64,000 nt of DNA, from the NCBI RefSeq assembly GCF_003991155.1, contig NZ_CP031293.1; one strand, given 5' to 3'. This DNA comes from Escherichia coli. GTDB taxonomy: Bacteria; Pseudomonadota; Gammaproteobacteria; Enterobacterales; Enterobacteriaceae. Made by a program: the position numbers and the translations under genes. This document shows, piece by piece, positions 3,230 through 62,982 of this stretch. Each line of letters starts with the position of its first letter. The stretch's first letter is position 1. A model generated the notes under the pieces. It did no database searches and was not told where the DNA came from. It worked only from the letters and a program-made list of their open reading frames with translations.

Positions 3230-4099
3230 TTATTTCAGAACAGTTTTCAGTGCTTCACCGATATCCGCCAGGCTGCGAACGGTTTTCACGCCTGCGGCTT
3301 CCAGAGCAGCGAATTTCTCATCCGCAGTCCCTTTCCCACCGGCAATGATCGCACCTGCGTGACCCATACGTTTGCCTTTCGGCGCAGTCACACCAGCGAT
3401 GTAACCTACAACTGGCTTGGTAACGTGCTCTTTGATGTATGCAGCCGCTTCTTCTTCAGCGCTACCACCGATCTCACCGATCATCACGATCGCTTCGGTC
3501 TGCGGATCTTTTTCGAACATTTCGAGGATGTCGATAAAGTTAGAGCCAGGGATCGGGTCGCCGCCGATACCAACACAGGTCGACTGACCGAAACCGTAAT
3601 CCGTGGTCTGTTTAACCGCTTCATAGGTCAGTGTACCGGAACGGGAAACGATACCCACTTTACCCGGTTTGTGAATGTGACCAGGCTGGATACCGATTTT
3701 GCATTCACCCGGAGTGATAACGCCCGGGCAGTTCGGGCCGATCATGCGAACGCCCGCTTCATCCAGTTTCACCTTCACGGTCAGCATATCCAGCGTCGGG
3801 ATGCCTTCAGTGATGGTGATAATCAGTTTGATGCCTGCATCAATAGCTTCCAGAATGGAGTCTTTGCAGAACGGTGCTGGTACGTAGATAACAGAAGCGG
3901 TAGCGCCAGTAGCAGCAACAGCTTCACGCACGGTGTTGAACACCGGCAGGCCGAGGTGGGTGGTGCCGCCTTTACCTGGGGTTACGCCGCCAACCATTTT
4001 AGTGCCGTATGCAATAGCCTGTTCTGAGTGGAAAGTCCCCTGGCTACCGGTAAAGCCCTGGCAGATAACCTTGGTGTTTTTATCAATTAAAATGGACAT
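3230..4099 (-). CDS. sucD: Succinyl-CoA synthetase alpha subunit
   Basis: 289-aa ORF; translation [33 protein letters not shown]... Confidence 0.97.
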
Positions 4100-5265
4100 T
4101 ATTTCCCCTCCACTGCGGCAACAACCTGCTGAGCTGCATCCGTCAGACCTTTTGCTGCAATAATATTCAGGCCGCTGTCAGCCAGTTTCTTCGCGCCGAG
4201 TTCGGCGTTGTTACCTTCCAGACGTACCACGACCGGTACGTTAACACCCACTTCCGCTACCGCGCCGATGATACCGTCAGCGATCAGGTCGCAACGAACG
4301 ATACCGCCGAAGATGTTAACCAGAACGGCTTTCACTTTGTCGTCAGAGAGGATGATTTTGAACGCTTCGGTTACGCGCTCTTTGGTTGCGCCGCCGCCAA
4401 CGTCCAGGAAGTTAGCTGGTTCGCCGCCGTGCAGTTTAACGATGTCCATGGTGCCCATCGCCAGGCCTGCGCCGTTAACCATACAACCGATGTTACCGTC
4501 CAGCGCAACGTAGTTCAGTTCCCACTGTGCAGCCTGTGCTTCACGCGGATCTTCCTGCGACTGGTCACGCATTTCGCGCAGATCAGGCTGGCGGAACAGT
4601 GCGTTGCCATCAGCGCCCAGTTTGCCGTCGAGGCAAATCAGATCGCCCTGTTTGGTGATGACCAGCGGGTTGATTTCGATCAGCGCCAGGTCGCGCTCCA
4701 GGAAAATGGTCGCCAGGCCCATGAAGATTTTGGTGAACTGCTGAACCAGTTTACCTTCCAGACCCAGTTTGAACGCCAGCTCGCGTCCCTGATACGGCAT
4801 CGGGCCAGTCAGCGGATCAAGCGCAACTTTGTGGATCAGGTGCGGAGTTTCTTCCGCCACTTTTTCGATTTCCACGCCGCCTTCGGTGGAGGCCATAAAG
4901 ACCACGCGACGTGAACTACGGTCTACAACGGCACCGAGATACAGCTCTTTAGCGATATCGGTCGCTGCTTCAACCAGAATCTGGTTAACCGGTTGGCCAT
5001 TGGCATCTGTTTGATACGTTACCAGACGCTTGCCCAGCCAGTTTTCTGCAAAAGCACGGATGTCTTCTTTGCTGTTTACCACTTTCACACCGCCCGCTTT
5101 ACCGCGGCCACCAGCGTGAACCTGACATTTCACTACCCACGGACCGGCACCGATTTTTGAAGCGGCTTCTTCTGCTTCGCGCGGAGTAGTACAGGCATAA
5201 CCCACCGGTGCTGGTAAGCCATAGCGGGCAAAAAGTTGTTTTGCCTGATATTCATGTAAGTTCAT
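4099..5265 (-). CDS. sucC: Succinyl-CoA synthetase beta subunit
   Basis: 388-aa [21 protein letters not shown]...; stop overlaps the sucD start by 1 nt. Confidence 0.97.
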
Positions 5266-5305
5266 GTGTTCTGTCCATCCTTCAGTAATCGTTATCTTTT
5301 AAACC

Positions 5306-5336
5306 GTAGACCGACACCCTATCCACGTCGGTCTAC
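5306..5336 (-). other. Intercistronic hairpin between sucB and sucC (10-bp stem GTAGACCGAC/GTCGGTCTAC, 11-nt loop)
   Basis: Perfect inverted repeat read from the sequence; lies inside the operon transcript. Confidence 0.4.
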
Positions 5337-5358
5337 AGTGCAGGTGAAACTTAAACTA

Positions 5359-6576
5359 CTACACGTCCAGCAGCAGACGCGTCGGATCTTCCAGCAACTC
5401 TTTGATCGTTACCAGGAAGCCCACGGATTCGCGACCATCGATCAGACGGTGATCGTAGGACAGCGCCAGGTACATCATCGGCAGGATCTCAACCTGACCA
5501 TTCACCGCCATCGGACGATCTTTGATAGCGTGCATACCCAGAATTGCGCTCTGCGGCGGGTTGATGATCGGCGTAGACATCAGGGAACCGAACACACCAC
5601 CGTTGGTGATGGTGAAGTTACCACCGGTCAGATCTTCAACCGTCAGCTTGCCGTCACGGCCTTTAACTGCCAGCTCTTTAATTTTCTTCTCAATGTCTGC
5701 CATACCGAGGGTATCGACATCACGCAGTACCGGCGTCACCAGGCCGCGCGGCGTAGAAACCGCCATGCTGACGTCGAAATAGTTGTGGTAAACCACGTCA
5801 TCGCCGTCGATAGAAGCATTCACTTCCGGGTAACGTTTCAGGGCTTCAACCACCGCTTTCACGTAGAAGGACATAAAGCCCAGACGGATGCCGTGGCGTT
5901 TTTCAAACGCTTCACCGTACTGCTTACGCAGATCCATAATCGGCTTCATGTTGACTTCGTTGAACGTGGTCAGCATGGCGGTGGAGTTTTTCGCTTCCAG
6001 CAGACGCTCTGCCACACGCTTACGCAGGCGAGTCATCGGCACACGTTTTTCGCTACGTGCAGCCAGGGCCGGTTGCGCCGCCGGAGCAGCCGCTGCCGGA
6101 GCAGACTCTTTCGCCGGGGCTTTCGCCAGATGTTTTTCCACATCTTCACGGGTCAGACGACCACCTACACCGGTGCCTTTAATGGCGCTGGCATCAAGAT
6201 TGTGTTCAGCCAGCAGGCGACGGATCGCCGGGCTTAAAGCATCGTTGTTTTGCTCTTCCAGAGACGCCTGCTGGCGTTGCGCCGGAGTGGACGCTTTCTC
6301 TTCAGATTTGGCGCTGGTTTCTTTACCGGCGCTGTTGCCTTCACGCAGGCGACCAAGGATCTGACGAGACGTTACCGTTGTACCTTCATCTTCCAGAACC
6401 GCATCCAGAATGCCGTCTGCTGATGCCGGTACTTCCAGTACCACTTTGTCAGTTTCGATTTCTACCAGCACTTCATCACGTACGACTGCGTCGCCGGGTT
6501 TTTTATGCCAGGTTGCGACGGTGGCATCGGCTACGGATTCAGGCAGGTCAGGGACCAGAATATCTACGCTACTCAT
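5359..6576 (-). CDS. sucB: 2-oxoglutarate dehydrogenase E2 (dihydrolipoyllysine succinyltransferase)
   Basis: 405-aa ORF with lipoyl domain ([13 protein letters not shown]) and Ala/Pro-rich linker. Confidence 0.97.
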
Positions 6577-6590
6577 TGTGTATCCTTTAT

Positions 6591-9392
6591 TTATTCGACG
6601 TTCAGCGCGTCATTAACCAGATCTTGTTGCTGTTTCTGGTGAACGGACATATACCCTACCGCCGGAGAGGCGGAGGCCGGGCGGCCTGCATAACGCAGAG
6701 AAGCCCCAAACGGAATCACTTCACGGAAATGATGCTGGCTGCAGTACCATGCGCCCTGATTGAGCGGCTCTTCCTGGCACCAGACAAAATCCTTGACGTG
6801 AGCAAACTGCTGCAACACTTCCTGCATCGCTTTATGCGGGAACGGGTAGAGTTGCTCGATACGCACAATGGCGACATCGTGTTGATTGTTCTTACGACGC
6901 TGTTCCAGCAGGTCGTAATAAACCTTACCAGAACACATCACTACGCGCTTCACGCCCTTCGGATCAAGCTCGTCGATTTCACCGATGGCTGGCAGGAAGG
7001 TGCCGTTCGCCAGTTCTTCGAGGCTGGAAACCGCCAGCGGATGACGCAGCAGGGATTTCGGCGACATCACGACCAGCGGACGACGCATCCCGCGCAGCGC
7101 CTGACGACGCAGCATGTGGTAAACCTGTGCCGGGGTAGACGGTACGCACACCTGCATGTTTTGCTCAGCGCAAAGTTGCAGATAACGTTCCAGACGCGCG
7201 GAGGAGTGCTCCGGCCCCTGCCCTTCGTAACCGTGCGGCAGCAACATCACCAGACCACACATCCGGCCCCATTTCTGCTCGCCAGAGGAGATGAACTGGT
7301 CGATAACCACCTGAGCACCGTTGGCGAAGTCACCGAATTGCGCTTCCCAGATAGTCAGAGTGCGTGGTTCTGCGGTGGCATAACCGTATTCAAACGCCAG
7401 TACGGCTTCTTCAGACAGTACGGAGTCCCAGACACGGAACGCGCCCTGGCCGTTATGGATGTGTTGCAGCGGCGTGTAAGTGGAACCGTTAGACTGGTTG
7501 TGGATCACCGCGTGGCGGTGGAAGAAGGTACCGCGACCGGAGTCTTCACCCGACAGGCGAACCGGAATGCCTTCGTCAACCAGCGTGGCGTAAGCGAGGT
7601 TTTCCGCGCCGCCCCAGTCGAACAGTTTCTCACCAGCAGCCATCGCCTGGCGATCGCCATAAATCTTGGCAACGCGAGACTGCATTTCAACTGCTTCCGG
7701 CACCGTGCTGATGCGTTTAGCCAGTTCCTGCAGGCGCTTCATCTCAACTTTGTTCGGGTACTCTTCGTCCCATTCGTGGTTGAGGTACGGCGACCAGGTG
7801 AAAGAGTGCATGTTCATCGGACGCCACTCTGCTACAACGCAATCGCCAGCATCCAGCGCATCGCGGTACAGGTTAACCATCTCGGTGGCATCTTCCAGCG
7901 TCGCGACTTTTTCCTGCTCCAGCTTGTCAGCATAGATTTTGCGCGGCGTCGGATGTTTTTTGATTTTCTGATACATCAGCGGCTGGGTTGCGCTCGGCTC
8001 GTCGGCTTCGTTGTGGCCGTGACGGCGGTAGCACACCAGGTCGATGAAGACATCACGTTTAAAGGTGTTACGGAAATCGAGCGCCAGACGGGTCACAAAG
8101 GCAACGGCTTCCGGATCATCCGCGTTTACGTGGAAAATCGGTGCCTGAACCATCTTACCGATATCAGTACAGTACGGTGTAGAACGAGCATCCAGCGGAT
8201 TAGAGGTGGTGAAGCCAACCTGGTTGTTGATAACGATACGTACCGTACCGCCAACTTCATAACCACGCGCTTTCGACATGTTCAGGGTTTCCTGAACCAC
8301 GCCCTGCCCGGTCACTGCGGCGTCACCGTGGATGGTGATTGGCAGCACTTTGTTGCTGCTCGGCTCATCGAGTCTGTCCAGACGGGCACGAACAGAACCG
8401 ATAACTACCGGGCTGACAATCTCAAGGTGAGACGGGTTAAACGCCAGCGCCAGGTGCACCAGGCCGCCATCGGTCTGGAAGTCAGACGAGAAGCCCATGT
8501 GGTATTTCACGTCGCCCGTGCCGAGGTGTTCTTTATGTTTACCGGCAAACTCGTCGAACAAGTCTTGCGGTTTTTTACCCAGCACGTTCACCAGCACGTT
8601 CAGACGACCACGGTGCGCCATCCCGAGAACCACTTCGCGGGTGCCGCTGTTGCCAGCGTGGCGGATCATCTCTTTAAGCATCGGGATTAACGCGTCACCG
8701 CCTTCCAGCGAGAAGCGTTTTGCGCCAGGGAATTTTGCGCCGAGGTAACGTTCAAGGCCTTCAGCGGCGGTCAGTTCGCTTAAGAAGCGTTTTTTCTCTT
8801 CGCTATTGAAAGTCGCGCGACCAGACTCGATACGCTGTTGGATCCAGCGTTTTTCTTCGGTGCTGGTGATGTGCATATACTCGGCACCAATCGGGCCGCA
8901 GTAGGTTTGCTTGAGGGCTTCCAGCAGCTCGCCGAGTTTCATGGTTTCTTTGCCGCTGGCAAATGAACCGACGTTGAAGGTCTCCTGGAAGTCTGCTTCG
9001 GTCAGATCGTGGAAAGACGGATCCAGATCGGCCACTTTATCTTGCTGCCACAGTCCCAGCGGATCGAGATTCGCATGCTGGTGACCACGGAAGCGGTATG
9101 CGTTAATGAGCTGCAGGACTTTAACCTGCTTCACATTGGTGTCAGGGTCGGAGATCGTTGAAGAGTAACGTGAAGCGTCTTTCGCCAGGCGGCGGAAATA
9201 TTCACGCGTTTGAGAGTGGAATTGATCCGGTTTGACTCCCGTACCAGGTAACTGCTGGAACGTCGAACGCCAGTTAGCGTCAACCGAGTCAGGATCGGTT
9301 AAGAAGTCTTCATAGAGCTGTTCTATCCAGCTCTGGTTTGCGCCAGAGAGGTAAGAAGAGTCCAACCAGGCTTTCAAAGCGCTGTTCTGCAT
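6591..9392 (-). CDS. sucA: 2-oxoglutarate dehydrogenase E1
   Basis: 933-aa [34 protein letters not shown]... Confidence 0.97.
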
Positions 9393-14826: not shown

Positions 14827-14856
14827 AAAACCCTGCGTGTTCACGCAGGGTTTTTA
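14827..14856 (+). terminator. gltA intrinsic terminator (stem CCCTGCGTG/CACGCAGGG followed by TTTTT); probably bidirectional
   Basis: Hairpin and T-run read from the sequence; an A-run precedes the stem; the dctM stop is 4 nt beyond. Confidence 0.7.
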
Positions 14857-14859
14857 GTT

Positions 14860-16170
14860 CTACACCAACAGCAAAGATATTGCCGGGATATAGGTAATAA
14901 CCAACAGCAGTAAAATAAGACTAACCAGTAGTGGCACCGCTTCTCGCATAAATTGCCCGACAGAAACCTGCACGGTATTACATACCAGCAGCATCACCGT
15001 TCCGACAGGCGGTGATAACGTTCCTAACGATAAGTTGAGGATCATGATGATGCCAAAATGCACCGGATCAATGCCAAAATGAGCCACCACAGGTTTAAGT
15101 AATGGAACTAATATCAGCAGGATGGCACTACCTTCAAGAAACATGCCAAGCACCAGCAGCAATAGATTGATAATCAATAAAAAGACGTATTTATTATCAG
15201 TCAGAGATGTCACAAACTCCGCAACCGTGATACCTGCCCGCTCAAGGGAAAATATCCAGCCCAGCGCGGCACTCGCCATAATGATTAACATGACCGATGC
15301 CGTCGAACGCGCCGTCTCTGAGAGTGCTGTAAATACATGGCTGATTTTCAGTTCGCGATAAATTACAAAACCAATAAACATCACCAATAATACTGCTACG
15401 GCTCCAGCTTCCGTTGGCGTAAAGATATTTGCCCGAATACCACCGATAACCGCAACAATTAAGAACAGTGCTGGCCAGGCCTGCACCAGCGCCACTGACA
15501 CTTCTTTCGGTTTTGGCCAGTGTTCGCTGGAAGGTTTTAAACCGCGCCGAATAGCTACCAGCCATACAGTGACAATCAACATGGCGGAACACAGCAGACC
15601 GGGCAGGATCCCGGCCATAAACATGGAGCCGATGGAGACATCCGCCACCAGTCCGTAAAGGATCAGTGCAATACCCGGTGGAATAATTGGTGTAATCAGC
15701 GAACCACTTGCCGTTATCGCCGCCGCAAAGCCACGGGAATAACCTTTCTGTTCCATTTCCGGCACCATCATGCGCGATAACATCGCAGCATCCGCCAGGT
15801 TTGAGGCGCTAACGCCGCCCATCATGGTACTGACCAGAATATTAGCCCCACCCAGACCACCGCGCATTCTGCCAATCAACACGTTGGCAATTTGCAAAAT
15901 ACGCGCGGCAATACCGGTATAGCTCATTAACGTGCCTAATAAGATAAAAAATGGAATAGCTAACAGCGAAGGGGTTTGCGTCGTGGCAATCAAACGCTGA
16001 ATTGCTACCATTAACGGCACATTTGAATAGCAAAGGAAGTAGGTCAGAATGCCGCAAAACATCGCCAGCCATACCGGCATATTGATAAATAAACAGATGA
16101 ACATAAGCGGAATGATCATTAGCCAGTTATCCAGCCAGCTTCCCGCCAGTAATTCACTCAATGCTGTCAT
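14860..16170 (-). CDS. TRAP transporter large permease (DctM family)
   Basis: 436-aa polytopic membrane ORF; start overlaps the dctQ stop by 1 nt. Confidence 0.85.
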   Translation of the reverse strand: MTALSELLAGSWLDNWLMIIPLMFICLFINMPVWLAMFCGILTYFLCYSNVPLMVAIQRLIATTQTPSLLAIPFFILLGTLMSYTGIAARILQIANVLIGRMRGGLGGANILVSTMMGGVSASNLADAAMLSRMMVPEMEQKGYSRGFAAAITASGSLITPIIPPGIALILYGLVADVSIGSMFMAGILPGLLCSAMLIVTVWLVAIRRGLKPSSEHWPKPKEVSVALVQAWPALFLIVAVIGGIRANIFTPTEAGAVAVLLVMFIGFVIYRELKISHVFTALSETARSTASVMLIIMASAALGWIFSLERAGITVAEFVTSLTDNKYVFLLIINLLLLVLGMFLEGSAILLILVPLLKPVVAHFGIDPVHFGIIMILNLSLGTLSPPVGTVMLLVCNTVQVSVGQFMREAVPLLVSLILLLLVITYIPAISLLLV

Positions 16171-16631
16171 TATTCACCTTCCTTGCGTGGCGTTTTCTTG
16201 ATCAGGTGTAAGGCAGTAAAACAGGCGATACCGATTGCACCAACCGTGACCGCAATATCGATCCAAAACCAGGATATTTTTAATATTTGCGTGGTTTTAA
16301 ATGCTGTTCCGGCAGCTAATTTCCATGCTGACCAAGCCATCACACTCAGTAAAACAATAGATATCAGAGAGACAAATAACGTTAAAACACGTTGCACGCG
16401 TGGTGTCAGTGCATCAGCTAAAAATGGAATCGACAAATGGGTATTATCCCGCTCGGCAACGACCGCACCAAACATGACTACCCAAATCATTAATAAACCG
16501 GAAACCTCTTCTGTCCACTGTAATGGCATATGAAAACAGTAACGCATTATTACCGCAGCAATGGTCATGATTACCAATATAAAGAGCGTTAATACCGCAG
16601 CAACTTCAATCATTTTCCCTAAAAGACGCAT
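16170..16631 (-). CDS. TRAP transporter small permease (DctQ family)
   Basis: About 153 aa with 4 predicted TM segments; start chosen at the ATG (MRLLGKMIEV...) with AGAGG RBS rather than the upstream GTG. Confidence 0.8.
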   Translation of the reverse strand: MRLLGKMIEVAAVLTLFILVIMTIAAVIMRYCFHMPLQWTEEVSGLLMIWVVMFGAVVAERDNTHLSIPFLADALTPRVQRVLTLFVSLISIVLLSVMAWSAWKLAAGTAFKTTQILKISWFWIDIAVTVGAIGIACFTALHLIKKTPRKEGE

Positions 16632-16650
16632 AAACACCTCTGCTCTTAAC

Positions 16651-16672
16651 GGTCGGTGCCGAAACACCGACC
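16651..16672 (-). other. Intercistronic hairpin between the TRAP binding-protein and permease genes (GGTCGGTG..CACCGACC)
   Basis: 8-bp perfect inverted repeat with 6-nt loop, read from the sequence. Confidence 0.4.
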
Positions 16673-16690
16673 AGTCCTTATGCCATGAAG

Positions 16691-17659
16691 TTATTTCAGC
16701 TGTTGCTGAATAGTGTCATACAAACCAGGGGTCCATTCCGGGAATTGTTGATAGACTTTTAAGGCTTTTTCTTTGAAAGGGGCGACGTCAGGATAGATAA
16801 TTTCCACGCCCTGCTCCTGCATGGTTTTCAACATTGTCGCATCCTGCTCAGTGGTAATTTTCTGGCTATATAAACCAGCTTCATACGCTGTCTGGTGAAT
16901 AATATCTAACTGCGCAGGTGTCAGGGTACTGAAAAACGCTTCACCACCCAACCATAATGATGTATTGGTCAGATAGTTCACCATTGACAGATATTTCGCC
17001 TGCTCATGCAGTTTTTGCCCATACAGAACAGAAACCGGGTTTTCCACACCATCGATCATCCCCTGCGTCAGCGCCGGATAAACGTCTCCCAGCGGCATTG
17101 GCGTTGGGGTTGCGCCCATTGCTTCAATGGCTTTAATCTGCATAACGTTATTCGGCACGCGGATCTTCATCCCTTTCAGGTCTTCAGGTGTACGAATCGG
17201 TTTTTTAGCAATGATCTGCCTGGTACCGTACAGATAGTTGCTCATGACAATATGCACACCTTTTTCCCGTAGTTTCTGTTCTTTTTGTTTAAACCAGTCA
17301 CTGGCATAAATCGCAAACAGTTTCTGCGGATCTTCGGTTAAATAAGGCCCAAACAATATTCCCAGGTCTGCATCGTAGTCAGTTAAAAATCCCACATCAC
17401 TGATGGTGATAATATTCATCCCCATCAACGCTTGTTCAGTAATATCTTGTTTAGAACCTAACTGTGAACTTGGGTAAAGTTCGAAAACAATATCTCCATT
17501 GCTTTTTTTCTTCACAAGTTCTGCCCAGTGCTTCACTACTGTATCCGCTGGCTCGCCGGGGTTACTTTCATAGGCGATTTTGATAGTTACCGGTGCGGCA
17601 TTCAGCATCGGACTAAATAAAGCGAAAAGAAATAAAAGTGGTGTCAGTAATTTTTTCAT
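16691..17659 (-). CDS. TRAP transporter periplasmic solute-binding protein (DctP family)
   Basis: 322 aa; signal peptide MKKLLTPLLFLFALFSPMLNA; conserved KIRVP region typical of carboxylate-binding DctP proteins. Confidence 0.85.
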   Translation of the reverse strand: MKKLLTPLLFLFALFSPMLNAAPVTIKIAYESNPGEPADTVVKHWAELVKKKSNGDIVFELYPSSQLGSKQDITEQALMGMNIITISDVGFLTDYDADLGILFGPYLTEDPQKLFAIYASDWFKQKEQKLREKGVHIVMSNYLYGTRQIIAKKPIRTPEDLKGMKIRVPNNVMQIKAIEAMGATPTPMPLGDVYPALTQGMIDGVENPVSVLYGQKLHEQAKYLSMVNYLTNTSLWLGGEAFFSTLTPAQLDIIHQTAYEAGLYSQKITTEQDATMLKTMQEQGVEIIYPDVAPFKEKALKVYQQFPEWTPGLYDTIQQQLK

Positions 17660-17686
17660 TATTATTACCTGTAAGAGCTTTATCGA

Positions 17687-18883
17687 TTAACGGGGATCTG
17701 CCCGACAGACTGCACTTTTGCTGTAATCAAATGCTTTATACGTTAAAACAAACTCCTGATGTTCCAGTCGTTCTGCGGCACAATATTGACCGTTGGCGAC
17801 ATGTTCAATCACCTGCATAATATCGTCTGCAATATCGTCGAGCGTTGCGCCTTCGCTAATTACACGACCGGCATTAACGTCCATATCGTCAGATAAATGC
17901 TCCCACGTCTGCGGGTTATTACACACTTTAATAATAGGAGCGATCACTGAACCAATAACTGAACCGCGACCTGTGGTAAATAACACCATATGACAGCCAG
18001 AGGCGATAAGTTCCAGTGCTTCTGAGGAATCGTTAATATTCGGATACCCAAAACGAGGTTCACCATCAGGCACCACGTCCATCAACCAAAGCCCAGGAAA
18101 GGGCGTTTGTTGCGTCGGCAAAATAACGCCAGCAATCAGCGCATCGCCCGACTTGGTATAAGCCCCAAGGGATTTTTCTTCCTGAGTGGTTAAGCCGCCT
18201 TCAGCATTACCATTAGAAAAACTCCCCAGCCCCATCAAACTGTAATAACGTTCGGCTTTTGCCATTGCCACTTCGATGGCATCACGTGCCTGCGAACTAG
18301 CCGCGCGCGACATCATATGCTGCTCACAACCAAGCAACTCACCGCTTTCTTCAAAAATACAGGTAGCCCCTTTCTCCAGCAGTTGGTCAAAGGCACGTCC
18401 TACTGCCGGGTTACCCGTGATACCACTGGTGCCATCGGAGCCACCGCAGATAGTACCAACCACCAGGTCGCTCCAGTTCAGGATACAACGCGGTGTATCC
18501 GCAAGCTGTTCCAGCATTTCAGCGACCAACTGCTTACCCAGAGTAATGGTGTTGGTCGTGCCTTTATTTTCCTGAATGACCAGCGTATGGCACGGTCGCC
18601 CACTTTCTCGTACTTCTTGCTCCAGCCGACGGCGATCAAAATTCTCGCACCCCAGCGAAATAATCAGTACACCACCTACGTTGCTATGAATCGCCAGATT
18701 TTTTACCAGACGATAGCCATAATCGCTGGGATAACAACCTGAAAAACCAAAATACTGCACGTCGTGACAAGGAAATCCTTCGGCAATCTTTTTAGCGACA
18801 TGGCTGGCACACTCCACCATAAAGATTACCTGCACAGTATTACGAATACCCGGTCGACCATTTTGCCGTACATAACCTTCCAT
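17687..18883 (-). CDS. UxaA-family (altronate/galactarate dehydratase-like) large subunit
   Basis: 398-aa ORF MEGYVRQNGRPGIRNTVQVIFMVECASHV... resembling the C-terminal catalytic part of UxaA/GarD; start overlaps the small-subunit stop (TAATG). Confidence 0.8.
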   Translation of the reverse strand: MEGYVRQNGRPGIRNTVQVIFMVECASHVAKKIAEGFPCHDVQYFGFSGCYPSDYGYRLVKNLAIHSNVGGVLIISLGCENFDRRRLEQEVRESGRPCHTLVIQENKGTTNTITLGKQLVAEMLEQLADTPRCILNWSDLVVGTICGGSDGTSGITGNPAVGRAFDQLLEKGATCIFEESGELLGCEQHMMSRAASSQARDAIEVAMAKAERYYSLMGLGSFSNGNAEGGLTTQEEKSLGAYTKSGDALIAGVILPTQQTPFPGLWLMDVVPDGEPRFGYPNINDSSEALELIASGCHMVLFTTGRGSVIGSVIAPIIKVCNNPQTWEHLSDDMDVNAGRVISEGATLDDIADDIMQVIEHVANGQYCAAERLEHQEFVLTYKAFDYSKSAVCRADPR

Positions 18884-19194
18884 TATGCTTTTTCCTCTGG
18901 CTGATAGCCGGCATCATCATGATGAAAAATGGCGATGGCATTGCTGGCAAGATTATGGGAATGCACATGTTCACCCATGGCAATATCGCGAGTGGCGTGT
19001 CCGATAATGGCGCCGTATTTCAGAATCGAATCACCATTGTTCAGCGCTTCGCAGGCCAGTTTGTGACCCAGGGTAACGGAACTACAGGCCACCATTTCCC
19101 CCTCATCCCACCAGACAATATCGCCACTGGCGATGTCATTCAGCGCGACTACACAGTTATCTTTGGCATGTAGCTTTAACGCACGTTTGCGCAT
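18883..19194 (-). CDS. SAF-domain small subunit of the split UxaA-type dehydratase
   Basis: About 103 aa from MRKRALKLHAKDNCVVALNDIASGDIV... with GGAGG RBS; corresponds to the N-terminal domain of single-chain UxaA. Confidence 0.7.
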   Translation of the reverse strand: MRKRALKLHAKDNCVVALNDIASGDIVWWDEGEMVACSSVTLGHKLACEALNNGDSILKYGAIIGHATRDIAMGEHVHSHNLASNAIAIFHHDDAGYQPEEKA

Positions 19195-19208
19195 AATTCC
19201 TCCGTACA

Positions 19209-19964
19209 TCAGAAGCCGATCAATGCGCCGCCATCCACCACCAGCACCTGACCACTGACAAATGCCGCTGCGTCTGAAGCCAGATAAACCGCAGCCCAAC
19301 CGATATCTTCCGGCTTGCCGAATTTTTTCATCGGTGTCCGCCCCAGGATTTTGTTACGGCGTTCGTCATCACCTTCAATGGCCTTACGCAACATTGGTGT
19401 ATCGATCCAGCCTGGCGCAATACCGTTGACGCGAATCCCATGAACGGCAAGCTCCGTGGTCATACCGCGAATCATGCCGAGATAGGCTGACTTCGCTGCG
19501 CTGTAGCCAGTAACCAGAGGCTGCCCAAGAAATGAGGTCATCGATGCAGTAAAAAGCACACAGCCTTGACCGCGTTGTTTCATATGCGGCACCAGCGCTT
19601 TGGTTAACGCAAATGCGCCGACTACGTGAACGTCGAGTACTGACTCAAAATCACTGACGCTCATCTCTTCAATCGGTTTTTTGCAGTGATTGCCTGCGTT
19701 ATTGACCAGGATATCGATAGCCCCGTGTTCGCTAATAAGCGCATCAACTTTTTCCTGCGCGGCTGCGGTATCCCCGACATCCATTTGTATCCAACTGGCC
19801 TGCGACCCCAATGTTCCGGCGGTCGCTTGCGCCAGCTCGCCGTTCAGGTCAGCAATAATGACCTTCGCCCCGCTGACTATCATGCATTTCGCCATTGCCA
19901 GCCCCAGCCCACTGGCTGCACCGGTGATCAACGCGGTTTTGTTATGTAAAGAAAAAGCATTCAT
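19209..19964 (-). CDS. Short-chain dehydrogenase/reductase (KduD/IdnO-like)
   Basis: 251 aa; TGAASGLG nucleotide-binding motif, IDILVNNAG, YSAAK catalytic motif; AAGGAG RBS. Confidence 0.85.
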   Translation of the reverse strand: MNAFSLHNKTALITGAASGLGLAMAKCMIVSGAKVIIADLNGELAQATAGTLGSQASWIQMDVGDTAAAQEKVDALISEHGAIDILVNNAGNHCKKPIEEMSVSDFESVLDVHVVGAFALTKALVPHMKQRGQGCVLFTASMTSFLGQPLVTGYSAAKSAYLGMIRGMTTELAVHGIRVNGIAPGWIDTPMLRKAIEGDDERRNKILGRTPMKKFGKPEDIGWAAVYLASDAAAFVSGQVLVVDGGALIGF

Positions 19965-19975
19965 GGTGTCGCTCC

Positions 19976-20989
19976 TTAAAGGTCAATGAGGATTTTGGTA
20001 TACGCGCCGGGATCACTTGCCCAGTCGCTAAAAGCATGATCAGCCTGTTCCAGCGGGTAGTGAGCACTCACCAGATTGCTGACCGGATAACGCCCGGACT
20101 CCATCAATGCCAGCACGGCACGAAAATCCGCCACGGTGGCATTGCGCGAACCACGGATATCCAGTTCTTTCATCAGGAACTGCGCACTCTGATAACTCAC
20201 TGGCTGTTTGGCGTAACCGACATAAACCACACGACCGCTAAACGCCACCAACCCTGTAGCCTGTTCAATGGTTTGTTGATTACCCACCGCTTCAATCACC
20301 ACTTCCGGGCCGCGACCGTCATTTAACAGCACCAGTTCTGCCGCCACGTCACATTGCTGCGAATTAAGAAAACGTTGCGCACCGCATTCCAGGGCAATGT
20401 TCTGCTTGCGATCATCAATATCGATAGCAATTACGCGCGCCCCCATGGCGGATGCCGCGGCGATAGCGCCAAGGCCAATTACCCCACAACCGATAACTGC
20501 GACCCATTCACCCACATTAATTTGCGCACGTCTGGCCGCATGTAGTCCCACGGCCAGCGGTTCTACCAGCGCTAACTCATCAACACTTAAGGCATTACAG
20601 ACAATGACTTTATGTGCAGGCATCGTCAGTTGTTGCGCCATCCCCCCCTGACGTTGCACACCAAGAGTTTGGTTGTTTTTACAGGCGTTAGGACGACCGC
20701 TCAGACAGGAGCTGCACACGCCACACTCAGTGCAAGGCAGAACGACCACCCGGTCACCTGGCTTGATCGCCCCTGCCATATCGCCAGTTGCCAGCACCGT
20801 GCCGCCAATTTCATGCCCCGGAATACAGGGATAATTAACCAGCGGATTCAGTCCCCGCCATGTATTGAGGTCAGAACCACACAGTCCGACACGCTCAACA
20901 TTGATTAGCACTTCTCCTTTACCGCAGACAGGTTCGGGGATATCAACAAATCGCGCCTGACTTCCCTGCTCAATGGTTAATGCCTTCAT
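19976..20989 (-). CDS. Zinc-dependent medium-chain dehydrogenase (IdnD / sorbitol dehydrogenase-like)
   Basis: 337 aa; GLCGSDL, GHEIGG, structural-zinc Cys cluster CTECGVCSSC, GCGVIGLG NAD fold; AAGGAGA RBS. Confidence 0.85.
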   Translation of the reverse strand: MKALTIEQGSQARFVDIPEPVCGKGEVLINVERVGLCGSDLNTWRGLNPLVNYPCIPGHEIGGTVLATGDMAGAIKPGDRVVVLPCTECGVCSSCLSGRPNACKNNQTLGVQRQGGMAQQLTMPAHKVIVCNALSVDELALVEPLAVGLHAARRAQINVGEWVAVIGCGVIGLGAIAAASAMGARVIAIDIDDRKQNIALECGAQRFLNSQQCDVAAELVLLNDGRGPEVVIEAVGNQQTIEQATGLVAFSGRVVYVGYAKQPVSYQSAQFLMKELDIRGSRNATVADFRAVLALMESGRYPVSNLVSAHYPLEQADHAFSDWASDPGAYTKILIDL

Positions 20990-21001
20990 TCATTGCTCTC
21001 C

Positions 21002-21688
21002 TTACATTACGCCGAAGGTTTCAAAGGCCTGTACCGTGCTCATGCCATCACTGATGGCTTTGCGCACTTCACTTTCAGTTGCCACTTTTTCCAGGGCCTG
21101 GGTAATAACTTCTTTCTCAACAACCTGGGGAATAATCAGTAATCCATCACGATCACCAAACACGATATCGCCCGGATTCACCCGCACGCCGTGAAATTCA
21201 ATAGGTACGCCGAAGTCGATGACCTTGCCGCGCGGACCTTGATCTTGTGCGTAAGTGCCATGACAAAAGGTGGGAAATTTCAATTCAAGAATTTCAGCAG
21301 AGTCACGGGCGTAACCATCGAGTACCGCACCTGCTGCTTTCAGATGCATGGCACGGGTAGACATCAACCCGCCCCACAAGGCATAGCGCAGAGAGCTGCC
21401 CGTAGTGATGTAAACATCGTTCTCTTTGAGGGCATCCAGCGCTTCAAACATGATGCCAAACGGTTTTTCGCCAATCGCCGTCTTACCCGACGTCGATTTG
21501 GTTTCGTAAACGTCCGACTCCAGCACCGGCATTGCCCGGCCTGCCACCACCGTATTCACATCCAGCGGCTTGATTGCCGGAGAAACAAACTGGTGCATAT
21601 AGCCCAGCGTGTCGAGAATATCGCCAACCACGGCGGTAAATAGCCGGGTTTTCATCAAAGCAAAAAGTTCGTTATCACTCTTCCACAT
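21002..21688 (-). CDS. RraA-like protein, putative class II 4-hydroxy-2-oxoacid aldolase
   Basis: About 228 aa from MWKSDNELFALMKTRLFTAVVGDILD... (RraA/MenG-like fold family); first gene of the operon. Confidence 0.75.
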   Translation of the reverse strand: MWKSDNELFALMKTRLFTAVVGDILDTLGYMHQFVSPAIKPLDVNTVVAGRAMPVLESDVYETKSTSGKTAIGEKPFGIMFEALDALKENDVYITTGSSLRYALWGGLMSTRAMHLKAAGAVLDGYARDSAEILELKFPTFCHGTYAQDQGPRGKVIDFGVPIEFHGVRVNPGDIVFGDRDGLLIIPQVVEKEVITQALEKVATESEVRKAISDGMSTVQAFETFGVM

Positions 21689-21694
21689 TATTTT

Positions 21695-21728
21695 CACCCT
21701 GTAAGCCTGTTTAACAGGTTTACAGGGT
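21695..21728. promoter_or_regulatory. Nested perfect palindrome (ACCCTGTAA-G-CCTGTT-T-AACAGG-T-TTACAGGGT) at the 5' end of the operon; candidate operator or RBS-occluding RNA hairpin
   Basis: Read from the sequence; lies 7 nt upstream of the RraA-like start codon and overlaps its Shine-Dalgarno region. Confidence 0.35.
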
Positions 21729-21951
21729 AAGGAGAAAAAGCGCACAATACTGCGAAGGGCGTCACGAAAAAGTTGTGTATTTACTATTTCTTCGCCACTC
21801 TTTCACACAATATGTCTTTGATTCGCACTGCATGGCGGGCGCACAGGCGCAGTAGTCTATTGATAATCAAGGGTTCTGGAGGAAAATATGAAGGATACAG
21901 TCCCGGTATTCTGGATTTTACCGACCAGGAAAAAGTACAACAGGAGTAAAA

Positions 21952-22665
21952 ATGAGTGAGAGTGCGTTATTGACCAGCGTAACGTTATCGTCACAGGTCA
22001 AAAATCATATTCTTAATCTGATCGCCGAACAAAAATTGACACCGGGGATGCCAGTTCCCAGTGAAATTCAGTTGATTCAGAAATTGGGCGTCAGTCGGGG
22101 TATTGTGCGTGAGGCCTATCGTTCACTTGCCGCCCTGGGGATTCTGGAAACGCACAGCGGTAAAGTGCCACGGATCAAAAAATTTGATGATGAAGTGCTG
22201 CGCGTGGTGTTTGGATTTGCCCTGGCGACCGAACAAGTAACAACAGAGCAAATTCTTCAAGTACGTCGCTGGCTAGAGTTGGGCGTTGTGGAAGCTGCTG
22301 CCCGTAATGGCGGAGAAGAAGATTTTGCTAACCTACGGGCTGAAATGGCAAAAATCCGCGAACAGTTCGATGATGTCGAAAGCTTTATCACCCATGACAT
22401 CCGCTTCCATCAGTTACTCGCCGTTGCCTCAAAAAATCCGCTTTTTATGATGTTATTGCAGGCATTACATCAGCAATTGCGGCAATCCATCCAGGAGGGA
22501 TTAAACGCCCAAAGCGATCAGAAAGAGTATGGCAATCACATCATCACACTACACCAGAAAATCTGCGACGCTGTGTGTGCCAGAGATGTCGAAACGGCGA
22601 CTCAAGCCATGAAATCACACTTCGACAGCCCGGTCAGTGCACTGATCAATAATTCCTCGCCATAA
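21952..22665 (+). CDS. GntR-family transcriptional regulator (FadR-type C-terminal domain)
   Basis: 237 aa; N-terminal winged HTH (EIQLIQKLGVSRGIVREAYRSL) followed by an all-helical domain; divergent from the catabolic operon. Confidence 0.85.
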   Translation: MSESALLTSVTLSSQVKNHILNLIAEQKLTPGMPVPSEIQLIQKLGVSRGIVREAYRSLAALGILETHSGKVPRIKKFDDEVLRVVFGFALATEQVTTEQILQVRRWLELGVVEAAARNGGEEDFANLRAEMAKIREQFDDVESFITHDIRFHQLLAVASKNPLFMMLLQALHQQLRQSIQEGLNAQSDQKEYGNHIITLHQKICDAVCARDVETATQAMKSHFDSPVSALINNSSP

Positions 22666-62278: not shown

Positions 62279-62355
62279 GGCTACGTAGCTCAGTTGGTTA
62301 GAGCACATCACTCATAATGATGGGGTCACAGGTTCGAATCCCGTCGTAGCCACCA
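62279..62355 (+). tRNA. metT: tRNA-Met (elongator, CAU)
   Basis: GGCTACGTAGCTCAGTTGGTTAGAGC...CTCATAA...GGTTCGAATCC...CCA cloverleaf. Confidence 0.93.
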
Positions 62356-62363
62356 TCTTTTTT

Positions 62364-62448
62364 GCGGGAGTGGCGAAATTGGTAGACGCACCAGATTTAG
62401 GTTCTGGCGCCGCAAGGTGTGCGAGTTCAAGTCTCGCCTCCCGCACCA
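62364..62448 (+). tRNA. leuW: tRNA-Leu (UAG), long variable arm
   Basis: GCGGGAGTGGCGAAATTGGTAGACGC...TTTAGGT...GAGTTCAAGTCTCGCCTCCCGCACCA. Confidence 0.9.
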
Positions 62449-62471
62449 TTCACCAGAAAGCGTTGTACGGA

Positions 62472-62546
62472 TGGGGTATCGCCAAGCGGTAAGGCACCGG
62501 TTTTTGATACCGGCATTCCCTGGTTCGAATCCAGGTACCCCAGCCA
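62472..62546 (+). tRNA. glnU: tRNA-Gln (UUG)
   Basis: TGGGGTATCGCCAAGCGGTAAGGCACCGGTTTTTGATACCGG...CCA. Confidence 0.92.
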
Positions 62547-62580
62547 TATTCTTCGAGTAAGCGGTTCACCGCCCGGTTAT

Positions 62581-62655
62581 TGGGGTATCGCCAAGCGGTA
62601 AGGCACCGGTTTTTGATACCGGCATTCCCTGGTTCGAATCCAGGTACCCCAGCCA
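62581..62655 (+). tRNA. glnW: tRNA-Gln (UUG), identical copy
   Basis: Same sequence as the 62472-62546 copy. Confidence 0.92.
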
Positions 62656-62670
62656 TCGAAGAAACAATCT

Positions 62671-62747
62671 GGCTACGTAGCTCAGTTGGTTAGAGCACAT
62701 CACTCATAATGATGGGGTCACAGGTTCGAATCCCGTCGTAGCCACCA
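62671..62747 (+). tRNA. metU: tRNA-Met (elongator, CAU), second copy
   Basis: Identical to the 62279-62355 copy. Confidence 0.93.
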
Positions 62748-62795
62748 AATTCTGAATGTGTCGAATGTGTTCGGCAAATTCACAAACCAATTTGT

Positions 62796-62870
62796 TGGGG
62801 TATCGCCAAGCGGTAAGGCACCGGATTCTGATTCCGGCATTCCGAGGTTCGAATCCTCGTACCCCAGCCA
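62796..62870 (+). tRNA. glnV: tRNA-Gln (CUG)
   Basis: TGGGGTATCGCCAAGCGGTAAGGCACCGGATTCTGATTCCGG...CCA. Confidence 0.92.
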
Positions 62871-62907
62871 ATTTATTCAAGACGCTTACCTTGTAAGTGC
62901 ACCCAGT

Positions 62908-62982
62908 TGGGGTATCGCCAAGCGGTAAGGCACCGGATTCTGATTCCGGCATTCCGAGGTTCGAATCCTCGTACCCCAGCCA
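62908..62982 (+). tRNA. glnX: tRNA-Gln (CUG), second copy
   Basis: Identical to the 62796-62870 copy. Confidence 0.92.

Follow-up and report, generated by a model that had tools for sequence, protein, structure and literature searches.

An RraA-like protein encoded on an Escherichia coli accessory island is a candidate retro-aldolase for 2-keto-3-deoxy sugar acids

What does a protein of the RraA fold do as the first gene product of a sugar-acid operon? The gene in question lies at 21002..21688, on the minus strand, of the window, the whole 64,000-nucleotide stretch of Escherichia coli contig NZ_CP031293.1 that was analysed. A first-pass annotation had named two functions for the family, inhibition of RNase E and aldol cleavage, and had asked whether the second applies here. 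Both functions exist in the family; as a full list they fall short, given FlDet, an RraA-family 2-keto-3-deoxy-glucarate dehydratase/decarboxylase from Flavobacterium sp. UMI-01 (PMC8563752). Judged by its sequence, the product is a metal-dependent enzyme with the RraA/aldolase fold and without a role as RNase E regulator, and we lean towards the view that this enzyme is a Mg2+-dependent retro-aldolase acting on a 2-keto-3-deoxy-hexonate.

The open reading frame runs from ATG 21688 to a stop codon at 21002, coincides with the RefSeq call and specifies 228 amino acids, which we describe as a predicted class II (Mg2+) pyruvate-enolate-forming lyase. Since all homologues open with the N-terminal sequence MW(K/x)xDxELF, ATG 21688 rather than the upstream GTG 21745 is taken as the start. 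The product is 100% identical to a protein of E. coli 2016C-3878 whose coding sequence PGAP labels 'RraA family protein' (WP_000265973.1), and a Pfam search matches residues 18-184 to PF03737 (RraA-like; E 1.3e-31; model positions 1-151/152).

This gene is the first of eight on the minus strand, separated by gaps of -1 to 59 nt and carried on a 7.9-kb accessory island present in ~12% of E. coli strains (about one in eight genomes). It is followed by genes for a Zn-dependent medium-chain dehydrogenase of the polyol/aldonate dehydrogenase type (Zn-ADH; 19976..20989) and a short-chain dehydrogenase (SDR; 19209..19964) that is gluconate-5-dehydrogenase/KduD-like by score only; the nearest solved structures and NCBIfam models are non-specific for both. 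Next come the two genes of a split UxaA/GarD-family sugar-acid dehydratase, encoding a small SAF-domain subunit (18883..19194) and a large subunit (17687..18883) that keeps C25, C50, C79 and C146, the four Cys positions of iron-dependent dehydratases. These positions are absent from SuyB, and identity of the split UxaA with a SuyAB-like sulfolactate sulfo-lyase was rejected. The operon ends with a TRAP transporter consisting of the solute-binding protein DctP (16691..17659; 68% identity to PDB 4OVT, Ochrobactrum anthropi Oant_3902), the small permease DctQ (16170..16631) and the large permease DctM (14860..16170), all likewise on the minus strand. A bidirectional hairpin terminator, AAAACCCTGCGTG-TTC-ACGCAGGGTTTTT, can be read from the sequence at 14829..14856, between the convergent gltA and dctM. 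The reading frame, the RefSeq identity and the eight-gene layout agree with the earlier description of 21002-21688 as the promoter-proximal gene of a catabolic operon. The dehydratase is indeed co-operonic with it, as had been claimed, although not adjacent, the two dehydrogenase genes separating the split UxaA from the RraA-like gene.

A FadR/GntR-family (FCD) transcriptional regulator is encoded divergently from the operon (21952..22665, plus strand), and 18 of the 80 loci surveyed below have a homologous regulator in the same divergent arrangement with the RraA-like gene. Between the two lies an unstranded palindrome of 16+1+16 nt with the core AACCTGTTnAACAGGTT (21696..21728), 8 nt upstream of the RraA-like start codon; E. 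albertii, Entomohabitans and Sodalis keep the core, a Succinivibrionaceae MAG has a degenerate version of it, and its distance from the ATG differs. The palindrome is probably the operator of the divergent regulator. An RNA hairpin sequestering the ribosome-binding site is disfavoured because the distance to the start codon varies between genera, from -40 to -110. PADLOC returned no matches, and we therefore draw no link to a defence system. The BEN2908 paper was considered as an account of the island and describes another island.

The AlphaFold model of the RraA-like protein (pLDDT 96.7) has a TM score of 0.79 to the HMG/CHA aldolase 3NOJ and 0.72-0.81 to other long forms; for E. coli RraA the score, normalised to the query, is 0.54-0.56. 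Foldseek matches the model with probability 1.00 to 5IR2, 3K4I, 2C5Q, 3NOJ, 5X15 and 1Q5X. Key residues (G106, G107, R128, D129, E132 and E205) were placed by the numbering of 3NOJ (PMC5065237). R128 corresponds to R123, the Arg that stabilises the pyruvate enolate; D129 to D124, the Asp that ligates the metal directly; and E205 to E199', the Glu contributed by the C-terminal helix of the neighbouring subunit. The stretch G107-X20-R128-D129-S-A-E132 fits the second-carboxylate motif G-X20-R-D-X2-E, of which D-X20-R-D is the alternative form. All 221 relatives compared keep G106, R128 and D129 unchanged. Positions 107 and 132 co-vary perfectly in the 120 sequences with 60% identity or more: the pair is G/E in 106 of them and E/G in the remaining 14, which means that exactly one carboxylate is always kept. 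E205 is retained in all 120 close relatives and in 67 of the 73 that are more distant. The metal- and pyruvate-binding residues, whose loss the first-pass annotation had regarded as decisive against an aldolase, are thus all present: R128, D129, a second carboxylate and E205. Such a set of residues would also support oxaloacetate decarboxylation, beta-elimination (as in FlDet) and 2,4-diketo acid hydrolysis.

A single search returned more than 7,700 proteins at E <= 0.001, and a genome scan confirmed at least 515 genomic loci for the subfamily, which spans Proteobacteria, Bacteroidota and Chloroflexota. Genomic context was surveyed in 80 genomes/loci, with members 61-98% identical. A sugar-acid dehydratase (UxaA, UxuA or enolase family) or KduI lies within 8 kb in 49 of the 80, and in 40 of the 56 that have at least 5 kb on both flanks; the three dehydratase families are mutually unrelated, and KduI constitutes a fourth context. 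An SDR is found within 7 kb in 50 loci, often directly adjacent. A PfkB (KdgK-like) kinase occurs in only 7 loci, an aldehyde dehydrogenase in one and a DHDPS-type gene in one, and no aldolase appeared among the other recurrent neighbour families of the 80 loci that could be annotated. Pfam and NCBIfam searches of neighbour families 4, 15, 21 and 46 returned nothing, while family 6 gave only a weak solute-binding-protein match. About 30% of loci, mostly from Variovorax and other Burkholderiales, hold the gene as a singleton that adjoins a GntR regulator and lacks sugar-acid neighbours.

Several classes of cluster can be distinguished. The minimal class A cluster (L013) contains only the RraA-like gene, an SDR and a split UxaA. 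Class B, from Bacteroidota, combines an SDR with a 7-bladed lactonase, a UxuA-like dehydratase and an MFS transporter, in operons that also hold a CoA-transferase and an enoyl-CoA hydratase; class C, from rhizobia, combines an SDR with an SMP-30 lactonase, UxuA and an ABC transporter. In class D the sole SDR adjoins KduI in the fashion of KduD, and in loci L004, L015 and L020 an SDR, an enolase-type dehydratase, a GFO dehydrogenase and an MFS transporter stand beside the RraA-like gene. Classes B and C are built from largely different parts, each set supplying an aldose dehydrogenase, a lactonase and a dehydratase, and C-C cleavage alone remains for the RraA-like gene. Both classes display the co-location expected of the non-phosphorylative 'Route I' sugar pathway (dehydrogenase, lactonase, dehydratase, aldolase), namely dehydrogenase, lactonase and dehydratase with kinases and other aldolases scarce. 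In the E. coli island the TRAP transporter would bring in the acid itself, and the first two steps of Route I are therefore needless there. One protein, P0269 (UxaA_C::RraA-like), was considered as a Rosetta-stone fusion, looks like a truncated chimera and was set aside. A literature search found no paper joining RraA with UxaA, fuconate, galactonate or TRAP transporters.

The catalytic residues, the dehydratase link in 49 of 80 loci and the non-orthology to RraA favour the aldolase role over the RNase E regulator, as the earlier reading had proposed. Because FlDet exists, and as retro-aldol cleavage and 2,4-diketo acid hydrolysis are inseparable by sequence or context, the aldolase stands as the best-supported assignment rather than as a demonstrated activity. 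The analysis shows the gene, its operon, the fold, the conserved and co-varying catalytic residues and the association with dehydratases; what reaction is catalysed, on which substrate, and what the two dehydrogenases contribute we infer as follows. The RraA-like enzyme would be a divalent-metal C-C lyase of the RraA/HMG-CHA-aldolase fold and would complete a sugar-acid pathway, encoded by the island, that needs no kinase ('non-phosphorylative'). The TRAP transporter would take up an L-hexonate resembling L-galactonate or L-fuconate. Zn-ADH and SDR would either invert C5 by oxidation and re-reduction before dehydration or process the aldehyde product, and the split UxaA-type dehydratase would yield a 2-keto-3-deoxy-hexonate (KDG or its 6-deoxy analogue), which gene order suggests is the substrate of the RraA-like enzyme. 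The 2-oxo-acid would then be chelated on a Mg2+ whose ligands are D129, E132 and, from the neighbouring subunit, E205', R128 would stabilise the pyruvate enolate, and retro-aldol cleavage between C3 and C4 would release pyruvate and glyceraldehyde or lactaldehyde.

Clues to the substrate come from the TRAP binding protein, which resembles an L-fuconate binder. The ligands of 4OVT and 4O8M we take to be L-fuconate/L-galactonate. Oant_3902 and Asuc_0158 are listed among proteins with 'known ligands' (bioRxiv supplement). Elsewhere, orthologues of DctP (65-74% identical) sit with Zn-ADH, UxaB, UxaA and KdgK, which suggests that the RraA-like gene fills the KDG-processing slot in the E. coli island. 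The island's Zn-ADH (compared with LgoD-like enzymes) and UxaA share only 32-36% identity with their counterparts in canonical L-galactonate clusters, so that this comparison does not fix the island's substrate, and the island enzymes were rejected as orthologues of the LgoD-UxaB-UxaA-KdgK route, only the TRAP binder being orthologous. E. coli already possesses KdgK/Eda, and a second route for KDG itself would thus be redundant. A 6-deoxy-2-keto-3-deoxy-hexonate has no 6-OH for phosphorylation by KdgK.

The frequent adjoining SDR also suits a dehydrogenase-plus-hydrolase pair of the 'Route III' type, in which the SDR would oxidise C4 of the 2-keto-3-deoxy acid and the RraA-like protein would hydrolyse the resulting 2,4-diketo-3-deoxy acid to pyruvate and L-lactate or D-glycerate. 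In Xanthomonas and Herbaspirillum the Route III hydrolase belongs to the fumarylacetoacetate-hydrolase family, for which the RraA-like protein would substitute. Such a role accords with the SDR that 50 of 80 loci have within 7 kb, often directly downstream, with the three-component minimum of class A, and with L004, L015 and L020, which mirror the Xanthomonas L-fucose cluster with its hydrolase slot vacant. No enzyme is encoded nearby that could oxidise an aldehyde product, which counts against the aldolase, and the missing aldehyde dehydrogenase is what two acid products would lead one to expect. Cleavage of a hydrated 4-ketone would likewise leave a metal-bound pyruvate enolate, and a heteromeric UxaA-type L-fuconate dehydratase serves such a route in Paraburkholderia mimosarum (PMC6336799). 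However, classes B and C import a neutral sugar, have a lactonase and contain one SDR only, which is required as the aldose 1-dehydrogenase and so leaves no 4-dehydrogenase; the only SDR of class D sits KduD-like beside KduI; and the SDRs of other classes are ~26-31% identical to that of E. coli, whereas the RraA-like proteins are 61-67% identical among themselves. L-KDF 4-dehydrogenase is absent from the best 60 PDB matches of the E. coli SDR, and we know of no hydrolase activity in the RraA fold. On balance we consider hydrolysis unlikely.

Elimination of the 4-OH after enolisation, in the manner of FlDet, would instead give a diketo or semialdehyde product with the C3-C4 bond intact. FlDet, alone among RraA-family enzymes in having a demonstrated activity on a 2-keto-3-deoxy sugar acid, has the same G-D...R-D core (PMC8563752), and the CoA-transferase and enoyl-CoA hydratase of class B could handle a longer-chain acid. 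When aligned with the FlDet sequence (taken from the supplement of PMC8563752), however, the RraA-like protein is only 29% identical, compared with 63-80% among FlDet orthologues; FlDet, with its D-X20-R-D motif, belongs to the RraAS2/HMG-CHA-like branch, and the subfamily signature Y146, Q148, Q150, K155 and E57 is missing from it at the aligned positions. An aldehyde dehydrogenase is missing in 79 of the 80 loci, a semialdehyde dehydrogenase was found in none of them, and no aldarate-forming (uronate dehydrogenase) step is evident; orthology to FlDet was rejected and a dehydratase or dehydratase/decarboxylase of this kind appears quite improbable. A general oxaloacetate decarboxylase or 4-hydroxy-2-oxoglutarate/HMG aldolase that neighbours the sugar-acid genes and does not use their product would fit the activities of every characterised active RraA-like protein (PMC5065237, introduction), database names such as 'putative 4-hydroxy-4-methyl-2-oxoglutarate aldolase', and the Burkholderiales singletons. 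Yet the protein scores far below the cut-offs of the LigK/PcmE equivalogs (61 vs 179 bits for NF006731, 53.9 vs 304.5 for TIGR02798), protocatechuate 4,5-cleavage/gallate and hydroxyproline genes are not nearby, and repeated independent linkage to three unrelated dehydratase families and KduI is hard to explain on this reading, which seems very unlikely. As for regulation of RNase E or the degradosome in the manner of E. coli RraA or RraB, the fold is held in common with E. coli RraA, and the long-form S. coelicolor RraAS2 inhibits RNase ES (PDB 5X15 title). Identity to EcRraA is nevertheless 22% (E 0.089), without orthology; the score against the RraA equivalog NF006875 is 42.7 bits with a cut-off of 136; EcRraA has lost G101, D102 and D124, whereas the RraA-like protein keeps its co-varying metal site; and the gene belongs to an accessory island, within a catabolic operon that is substrate-specific. 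More than 1000 E. coli/Enterobacteriaceae contigs encode the genuine RraA protein, for which reason rraA is taken as a core gene, and a regulatory role for the island protein seems barely credible.

Neither of the current database labels, 'RraA family protein / regulator of RNase E' and 'putative HMG aldolase', suits the genomic setting. Should the subfamily be assigned the C-C cleavage step in sugar-acid pathways that need no kinase, thousands of annotations would be corrected, a function would be defined for an accessory metabolic island in about 1/8 of E. coli genomes, and the step of bacterial non-phosphorylative routes given to an 'unidentified aldolase' (PMC12994016) would be filled. The RraA fold, best known through the RNA-degradosome regulator, would then be primarily an enzyme scaffold. 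A bolder extension, which we regard as doubtful, is that the subfamily constitutes a third, convergent route for cleaving non-phosphorylated 2-keto-3-deoxy sugar acids, physiological in E. coli, or, more radically, the first RraA-fold C-C hydrolase. The former would open 6-deoxy-hexonates, such as L-fuconate from host/mucin fucose oxidation, to ~12% of E. coli strains; the latter would cleave 2,4-diketo-3-deoxy acids and replace the FAH-family hydrolase of Route III.

How the proposed retro-aldolase relates to known systems can be summarised by fold and chemistry. E. coli RraA (1Q5X; P0391) has the core fold and PF03737 in common with it; that protein is a short form of 161 aa, without the N- and C-terminal helices and without the metal-site residues (D-A...R-Q), in contrast with the 228 aa of the RraA-like protein. 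T. thermophilus RraA (1J3L) and S. cerevisiae Yer010c (2C5Q), which in work of Mazurkewich et al. from 2014 reportedly have HMG aldolase/OAA decarboxylase activity, share the metal motif G-X20-R-D-X2-E/D; they are 23-26% identical to the RraA-like protein, TtRraA being a short 164-aa form, and neither lies in a sugar-acid operon. The HMG/CHA aldolase (LigK/ProA/GalC; P. putida F1, 3NOJ) has the same long alpha-beta-beta-alpha RraA fold, the Arg-Asp pair and the trans-subunit Glu, and the chemistry expected is a Mg2+-bound pyruvate enolate (PMC5065237). It is 20% identical, its second carboxylate is D102 rather than the X2-E position, its substrate-facing loop reads AQGTVKETL in place of YAQDQGPRGK, and its context is aromatic ring cleavage instead of sugar-acid catabolism. 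FlDet resembles the RraA-like protein in fold, length, divalent-metal activation and use of a 2-keto-3-deoxy sugar acid, and differs in catalysing elimination and decarboxylation rather than C-C cleavage and in its partner, an alpha-ketoglutarate-semialdehyde dehydrogenase, which is missing at RraA-like loci. The class II 2-keto-3-deoxy sugar-acid aldolases of the HpcH/HpaI fold (E. coli YfaU/RhmA and GarL) and the class I KDG/KDF aldolases of the DHDPS/NAL fold (Sulfolobus KDG aldolase and Veillonella FucH) match the reaction and pathway position proposed here; their folds are unrelated to that of the RraA-like protein, which would therefore be a convergent third solution.

In this stretch of E. 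coli chromosome, the RraA-like gene is a 228-aa ORF on the minus strand (21002-21688), running from an ATG at 21688 to a stop at 21002. RefSeq names its product 'RraA family protein' (WP_000265973.1) and Pfam assigns it to the RraA-like family (PF03737, E 1.3e-31), both in agreement with the first-pass annotation. All homologues begin MWxxDxELF, which confirms the ATG at 21688 as the start and rules out an upstream GTG. The gene was correctly described as promoter-proximal, being the first of eight co-directional genes with intergenic gaps of -1 to 59 nt. It is followed by a Zn-dependent dehydrogenase, an SDR, the small and large subunits of a split UxaA/GarD-type dehydratase, and DctP, DctQ and DctM, which constitute a TRAP transporter. 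The dehydratase said to be adjacent does belong to the operon, but the Zn-dependent dehydrogenase and the SDR intervene. A hairpin shared with the convergent gltA marks the 3' end of the operon, and a FadR/GntR regulator (21952-22665) is transcribed divergently. Comparison of this 7.9-kb island (14860-22665) with K-12 MG1655 (747921-752795) places it between gltA and abrB, where K-12 has the ybgOPQD fimbrial operon. The island is 100% identical in strain 2016C-3878 and is carried by 660 of 5,426 complete E. coli genomes. Elsewhere in the window, seven tRNA genes (62279-62982; Met, Leu, Gln, Gln, Met, Gln, Gln) form the ordinary metT-leuW-glnUW-metU-glnVX array of E. coli.

At 21696-21728 a palindrome of 16+1+16 nt (ACCCTGTAAGCCTGTT / AACAGGTTTACAGGGT) reaches to 8 nt from the RraA-like start codon, overlapping the likely ribosome-binding site. 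Orthologues of the gene elsewhere are preceded by the same core, AACCTGTTnAACAGGTT, at about -40 to -110: it is conserved in E. albertii, Entomohabitans and Sodalis, and degenerate in a Succinivibrionaceae MAG. The palindrome probably serves the divergent FadR/GntR regulator as its operator; an RNA switch is the less likely reading.

The island protein was aligned jointly with the P. putida HMG/CHA aldolase (3NOJ), the relevant part of which was recovered from a PDB alignment; with T. thermophilus RraA and yeast Yer010c, also obtained via PDB alignment; with FlDet, the RraA-family 2-keto-3-deoxy-glucarate dehydratase/decarboxylase of Flavobacterium sp. UMI-01, taken from the supplement of its paper; and with E. 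coli RraA, checked by exact look-up. The recovered 3NOJ numbering (G101, D102, R123, D124, E199) agrees with the residues published in PMC5065237, where homologues are described, citing its ref. 21, as carrying 'one of two motifs'. The comparison of metal- and pyruvate-binding residues proposed in the first-pass annotation finds R128 at the position of the essential Arg-123 of 3NOJ, D129 at that of the metal ligand Asp-124 and E205 at that of Glu-199'; position 107, equivalent to D102, is Gly, and Glu-132 lies three residues past the Asp, the metal motif reading exactly G-X20-R-D-X2-E. In 2014 Mazurkewich and co-workers, the authors of that reference, reportedly found this motif in the aldolase-active TtRraA and Yer010c, and no activity in E. 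coli RraA, which has D-A...R-Q at the motif positions; the HMG/CHA aldolase has D-X20-R-D instead. G106, R128 and D129 are invariant across 221 relatives. In the 120 sequences that share 60% identity or more, positions 107/132 are G/E in 106, E/G in 14 and no other pair, so that a single carboxylate is kept at one position or the other, as expected from selection on the metal site.

The AlphaFold model (pLDDT 96.7) resembles the long forms 5IR2, 3K4I, 3NOJ and RraAS2 (TM 0.81, 0.80, 0.79 and 0.78), but E. coli RraA only at TM 0.54-0.56. Identity to E. coli RraA by BLAST is 22% (E 0.089), and at 42.7 bits the protein falls short of the NCBIfam RraA equivalog cut-off, which is 136. Given these values and the active site, there is almost no support for an RNase E regulator, a role that we regard as hardly credible. 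In sequence it shows all the features that mark the catalytically active branch of the RraA-like superfamily, and it is predicted to be an enzyme, as first proposed. The solved structure that matches best in both fold and sequence, 5IR2 (27% identity, WGG...RD motif), was described on deposition as a 'novel cellulase' of gut-metagenome origin despite its RraA fold, a label that seems questionable, or surprising at the least.

Relatives of the island protein form a large, tight subfamily (61-82% identity, Enterobacteria to Bacteroidota) with signature residues Y146, Q148, D149, Q150, R153, K155, R51 and E57, which are altered outside it. Genomic contexts were surveyed at 80 loci by calling and clustering ORFs, a step that is crude in high-GC genomes, and annotating recurrent families. 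Five classes were distinguished, and about 30% of the loci are singletons without informative neighbours. Class A (13 loci in Enterobacteria, Succinivibrionaceae, Rhizobium tropici, Bacteroidales, Pontibacter and Maribacter) contains the RraA-like gene, sometimes a Zn-ADH, an SDR and split UxaA. Class B (about 20 Bacteroidota) combines it with a LacI regulator, a GH38-like hydrolase, a sugar-porter MFS, an SDR, a 7-bladed lactonase and a UxuA-like dehydratase. Class C (about 10 rhizobia/Rhodobacterales) has a sugar ABC transporter, an SDR, an SMP-30 lactonase, a regulator and, directly upstream of the RraA-like gene, a bona fide UxuA. Class D (about 7 Flavobacteriia) has KduI, an SDR, a glycosidase, AraC and, ahead of the RraA-like gene, a BT3233-family gene, and a small class has an SDR and an enolase-superfamily dehydratase. 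A sugar-acid dehydratase or KduI lies within 8 kb at 49 of the 80 loci, and at 40 of the 56 whose flanks both extend to 5 kb or more. PfkB kinases occur at seven loci, an aldehyde dehydrogenase at one (a weak match) and a DHDPS-type enzyme at one; no aldolase was found among the recurrent annotatable neighbour families of the 80 loci. UxaA, UxuA, enolase-type dehydratases and KduI/KduD all yield 2-keto-3-deoxy-gluconate-type acids, and the common denominator of these neighbourhoods is therefore the 2-keto-3-deoxy acid substrate class originally suggested.

Class B operons (L026, L031, L036, L044, L072 and about 15 other Bacteroidota loci; for example L044 6014-17650) also encode a type III CoA-transferase, an enoyl-CoA hydratase and a protein of 383 aa that weakly matches solute-binding proteins, none with an obvious role in a sugar-acid route, and a conserved 139-aa ORF without a Pfam match follows the MFS gene. 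A 471-aa protein from outside the window (P0269) combines truncated versions of both domains, UxaA large-subunit and RraA-like (the latter 52% identical to the island protein), and is either a genuine fusion or an assembly/gene-calling chimera. The profile search also matched NF009399 (PRK12764), a 501-aa family in which a fumarylacetoacetate-hydrolase domain is fused to an RraA-like domain, hinting that the two folds are functionally connected, as consecutive steps or as alternative C-C-cleaving modules.

The island DctP shares 68% identity with 4OVT (O. anthropi Oant_3902) and 43% with 4O8M (A. succinogenes), whose organisms were confirmed and which both have 'known ligands'; they were reportedly solved with L-fuconate and L-galactonate. 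PMC5507952 describes a TRAP system of dual L-fuconate/L-galactonate specificity from the same study. DctP orthologues in Pseudomonas, Salipiger and Citrobacter lie beside Zn-ADH, UxaB, full-length UxaA and KdgK, the canonical L-galactonate route, to whose enzymes the island Zn-ADH and UxaA are only 32-36% identical. The island UxaA large subunit is 55% identical to the split UxaA of Snuella sedimenti (L004), and a heteromeric UxaA-type enzyme of Paraburkholderia is an L-fuconate dehydratase (PMC6336799). Sequence relationships thus point to a non-canonical route on the island, probably for an acid of the L-galactonate/L-fuconate type, with the RraA-like enzyme taking the position of KdgK/Eda. 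A 6-deoxy intermediate would not be phosphorylatable by KdgK, so that, speculatively, a kinase-independent lyase could be useful although E. coli has KdgK and Eda. At the Snuella locus (3350-8872), the gene directly upstream of the split UxaA, an MFS transporter and a GH29 alpha-L-fucosidase encodes a second RraA-like paralogue, of 218 aa, which has an E-X20-R-D motif and shares about 30% identity with the E. coli protein; at least two RraA-like clades thus partner this dehydratase type.

Retro-aldol cleavage, hydrolysis of a 2,4-diketo (4-oxidised) acid and FlDet-type beta-elimination share a metal-bound pyruvate-enolate logic. On the reaction, most is learned from classes B and C: from largely different parts, each assembles one dehydrogenase, a lactonase and a dehydratase, handling an imported neutral sugar by the classical non-phosphorylative Route I lacking only the aldolase, for which the RraA-like gene is the sole recurrent annotated candidate. 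Residues and gene neighbourhoods make an aldolase on balance probable; under this reading no class is short of a step, although 'spare' dehydrogenases remain in class A. Hydrolysis of a 4-oxidised acid by the RraA-like enzyme would fit the minimal class A cluster, the L004-type cluster with an SDR and an enolase-type dehydratase, and the lack of aldehyde dehydrogenases near RraA-like genes, but requires a second dehydrogenase that classes B and C lack; the only SDR of class D adjoins KduI, and with gaps thus left in classes B, C and D this hydrolysis is unlikely.

A dehydratase of the FlDet type is quite improbable, given that identity to FlDet is 29%, that the motif is of another type and that no semialdehyde dehydrogenase lies near the RraA-like genes of the 80 loci. 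We give very little credence to a generic OAA/HMG enzyme; the island protein scores far under the equivalog cut-offs of the HMG/CHA aldolase, of which it is not an orthologue.

An aldolase is already suggested by names in use in databases ('putative 4-hydroxy-4-methyl-2-oxoglutarate aldolase'), which makes the choice of enzyme over regulator nothing new; novelty, if the reading is true, would lie in the substrate class and the role in the pathway. No paper connecting UxaA, fuconate, galactonate or TRAP systems with RraA-family proteins came up in the literature search. RraA goes unmentioned in a 2026 review of fucose catabolism, and a 2026 JBC paper still refers to an 'unidentified aldolase' in a bacterial non-phosphorylative route (PMC12994016). 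The island protein is an orthologue neither of E. coli RraA nor of FlDet, and it differs from the HMG/CHA aldolase in having Gly at 107 and Glu-132 in place of the D102 carboxylate. The class II aldolases YfaU/RhmA and GarL have the HpcH fold, and the KDG/KDF aldolases the DHDPS fold; if the RraA-like enzyme is an aldolase, it would parallel their function in a third fold.
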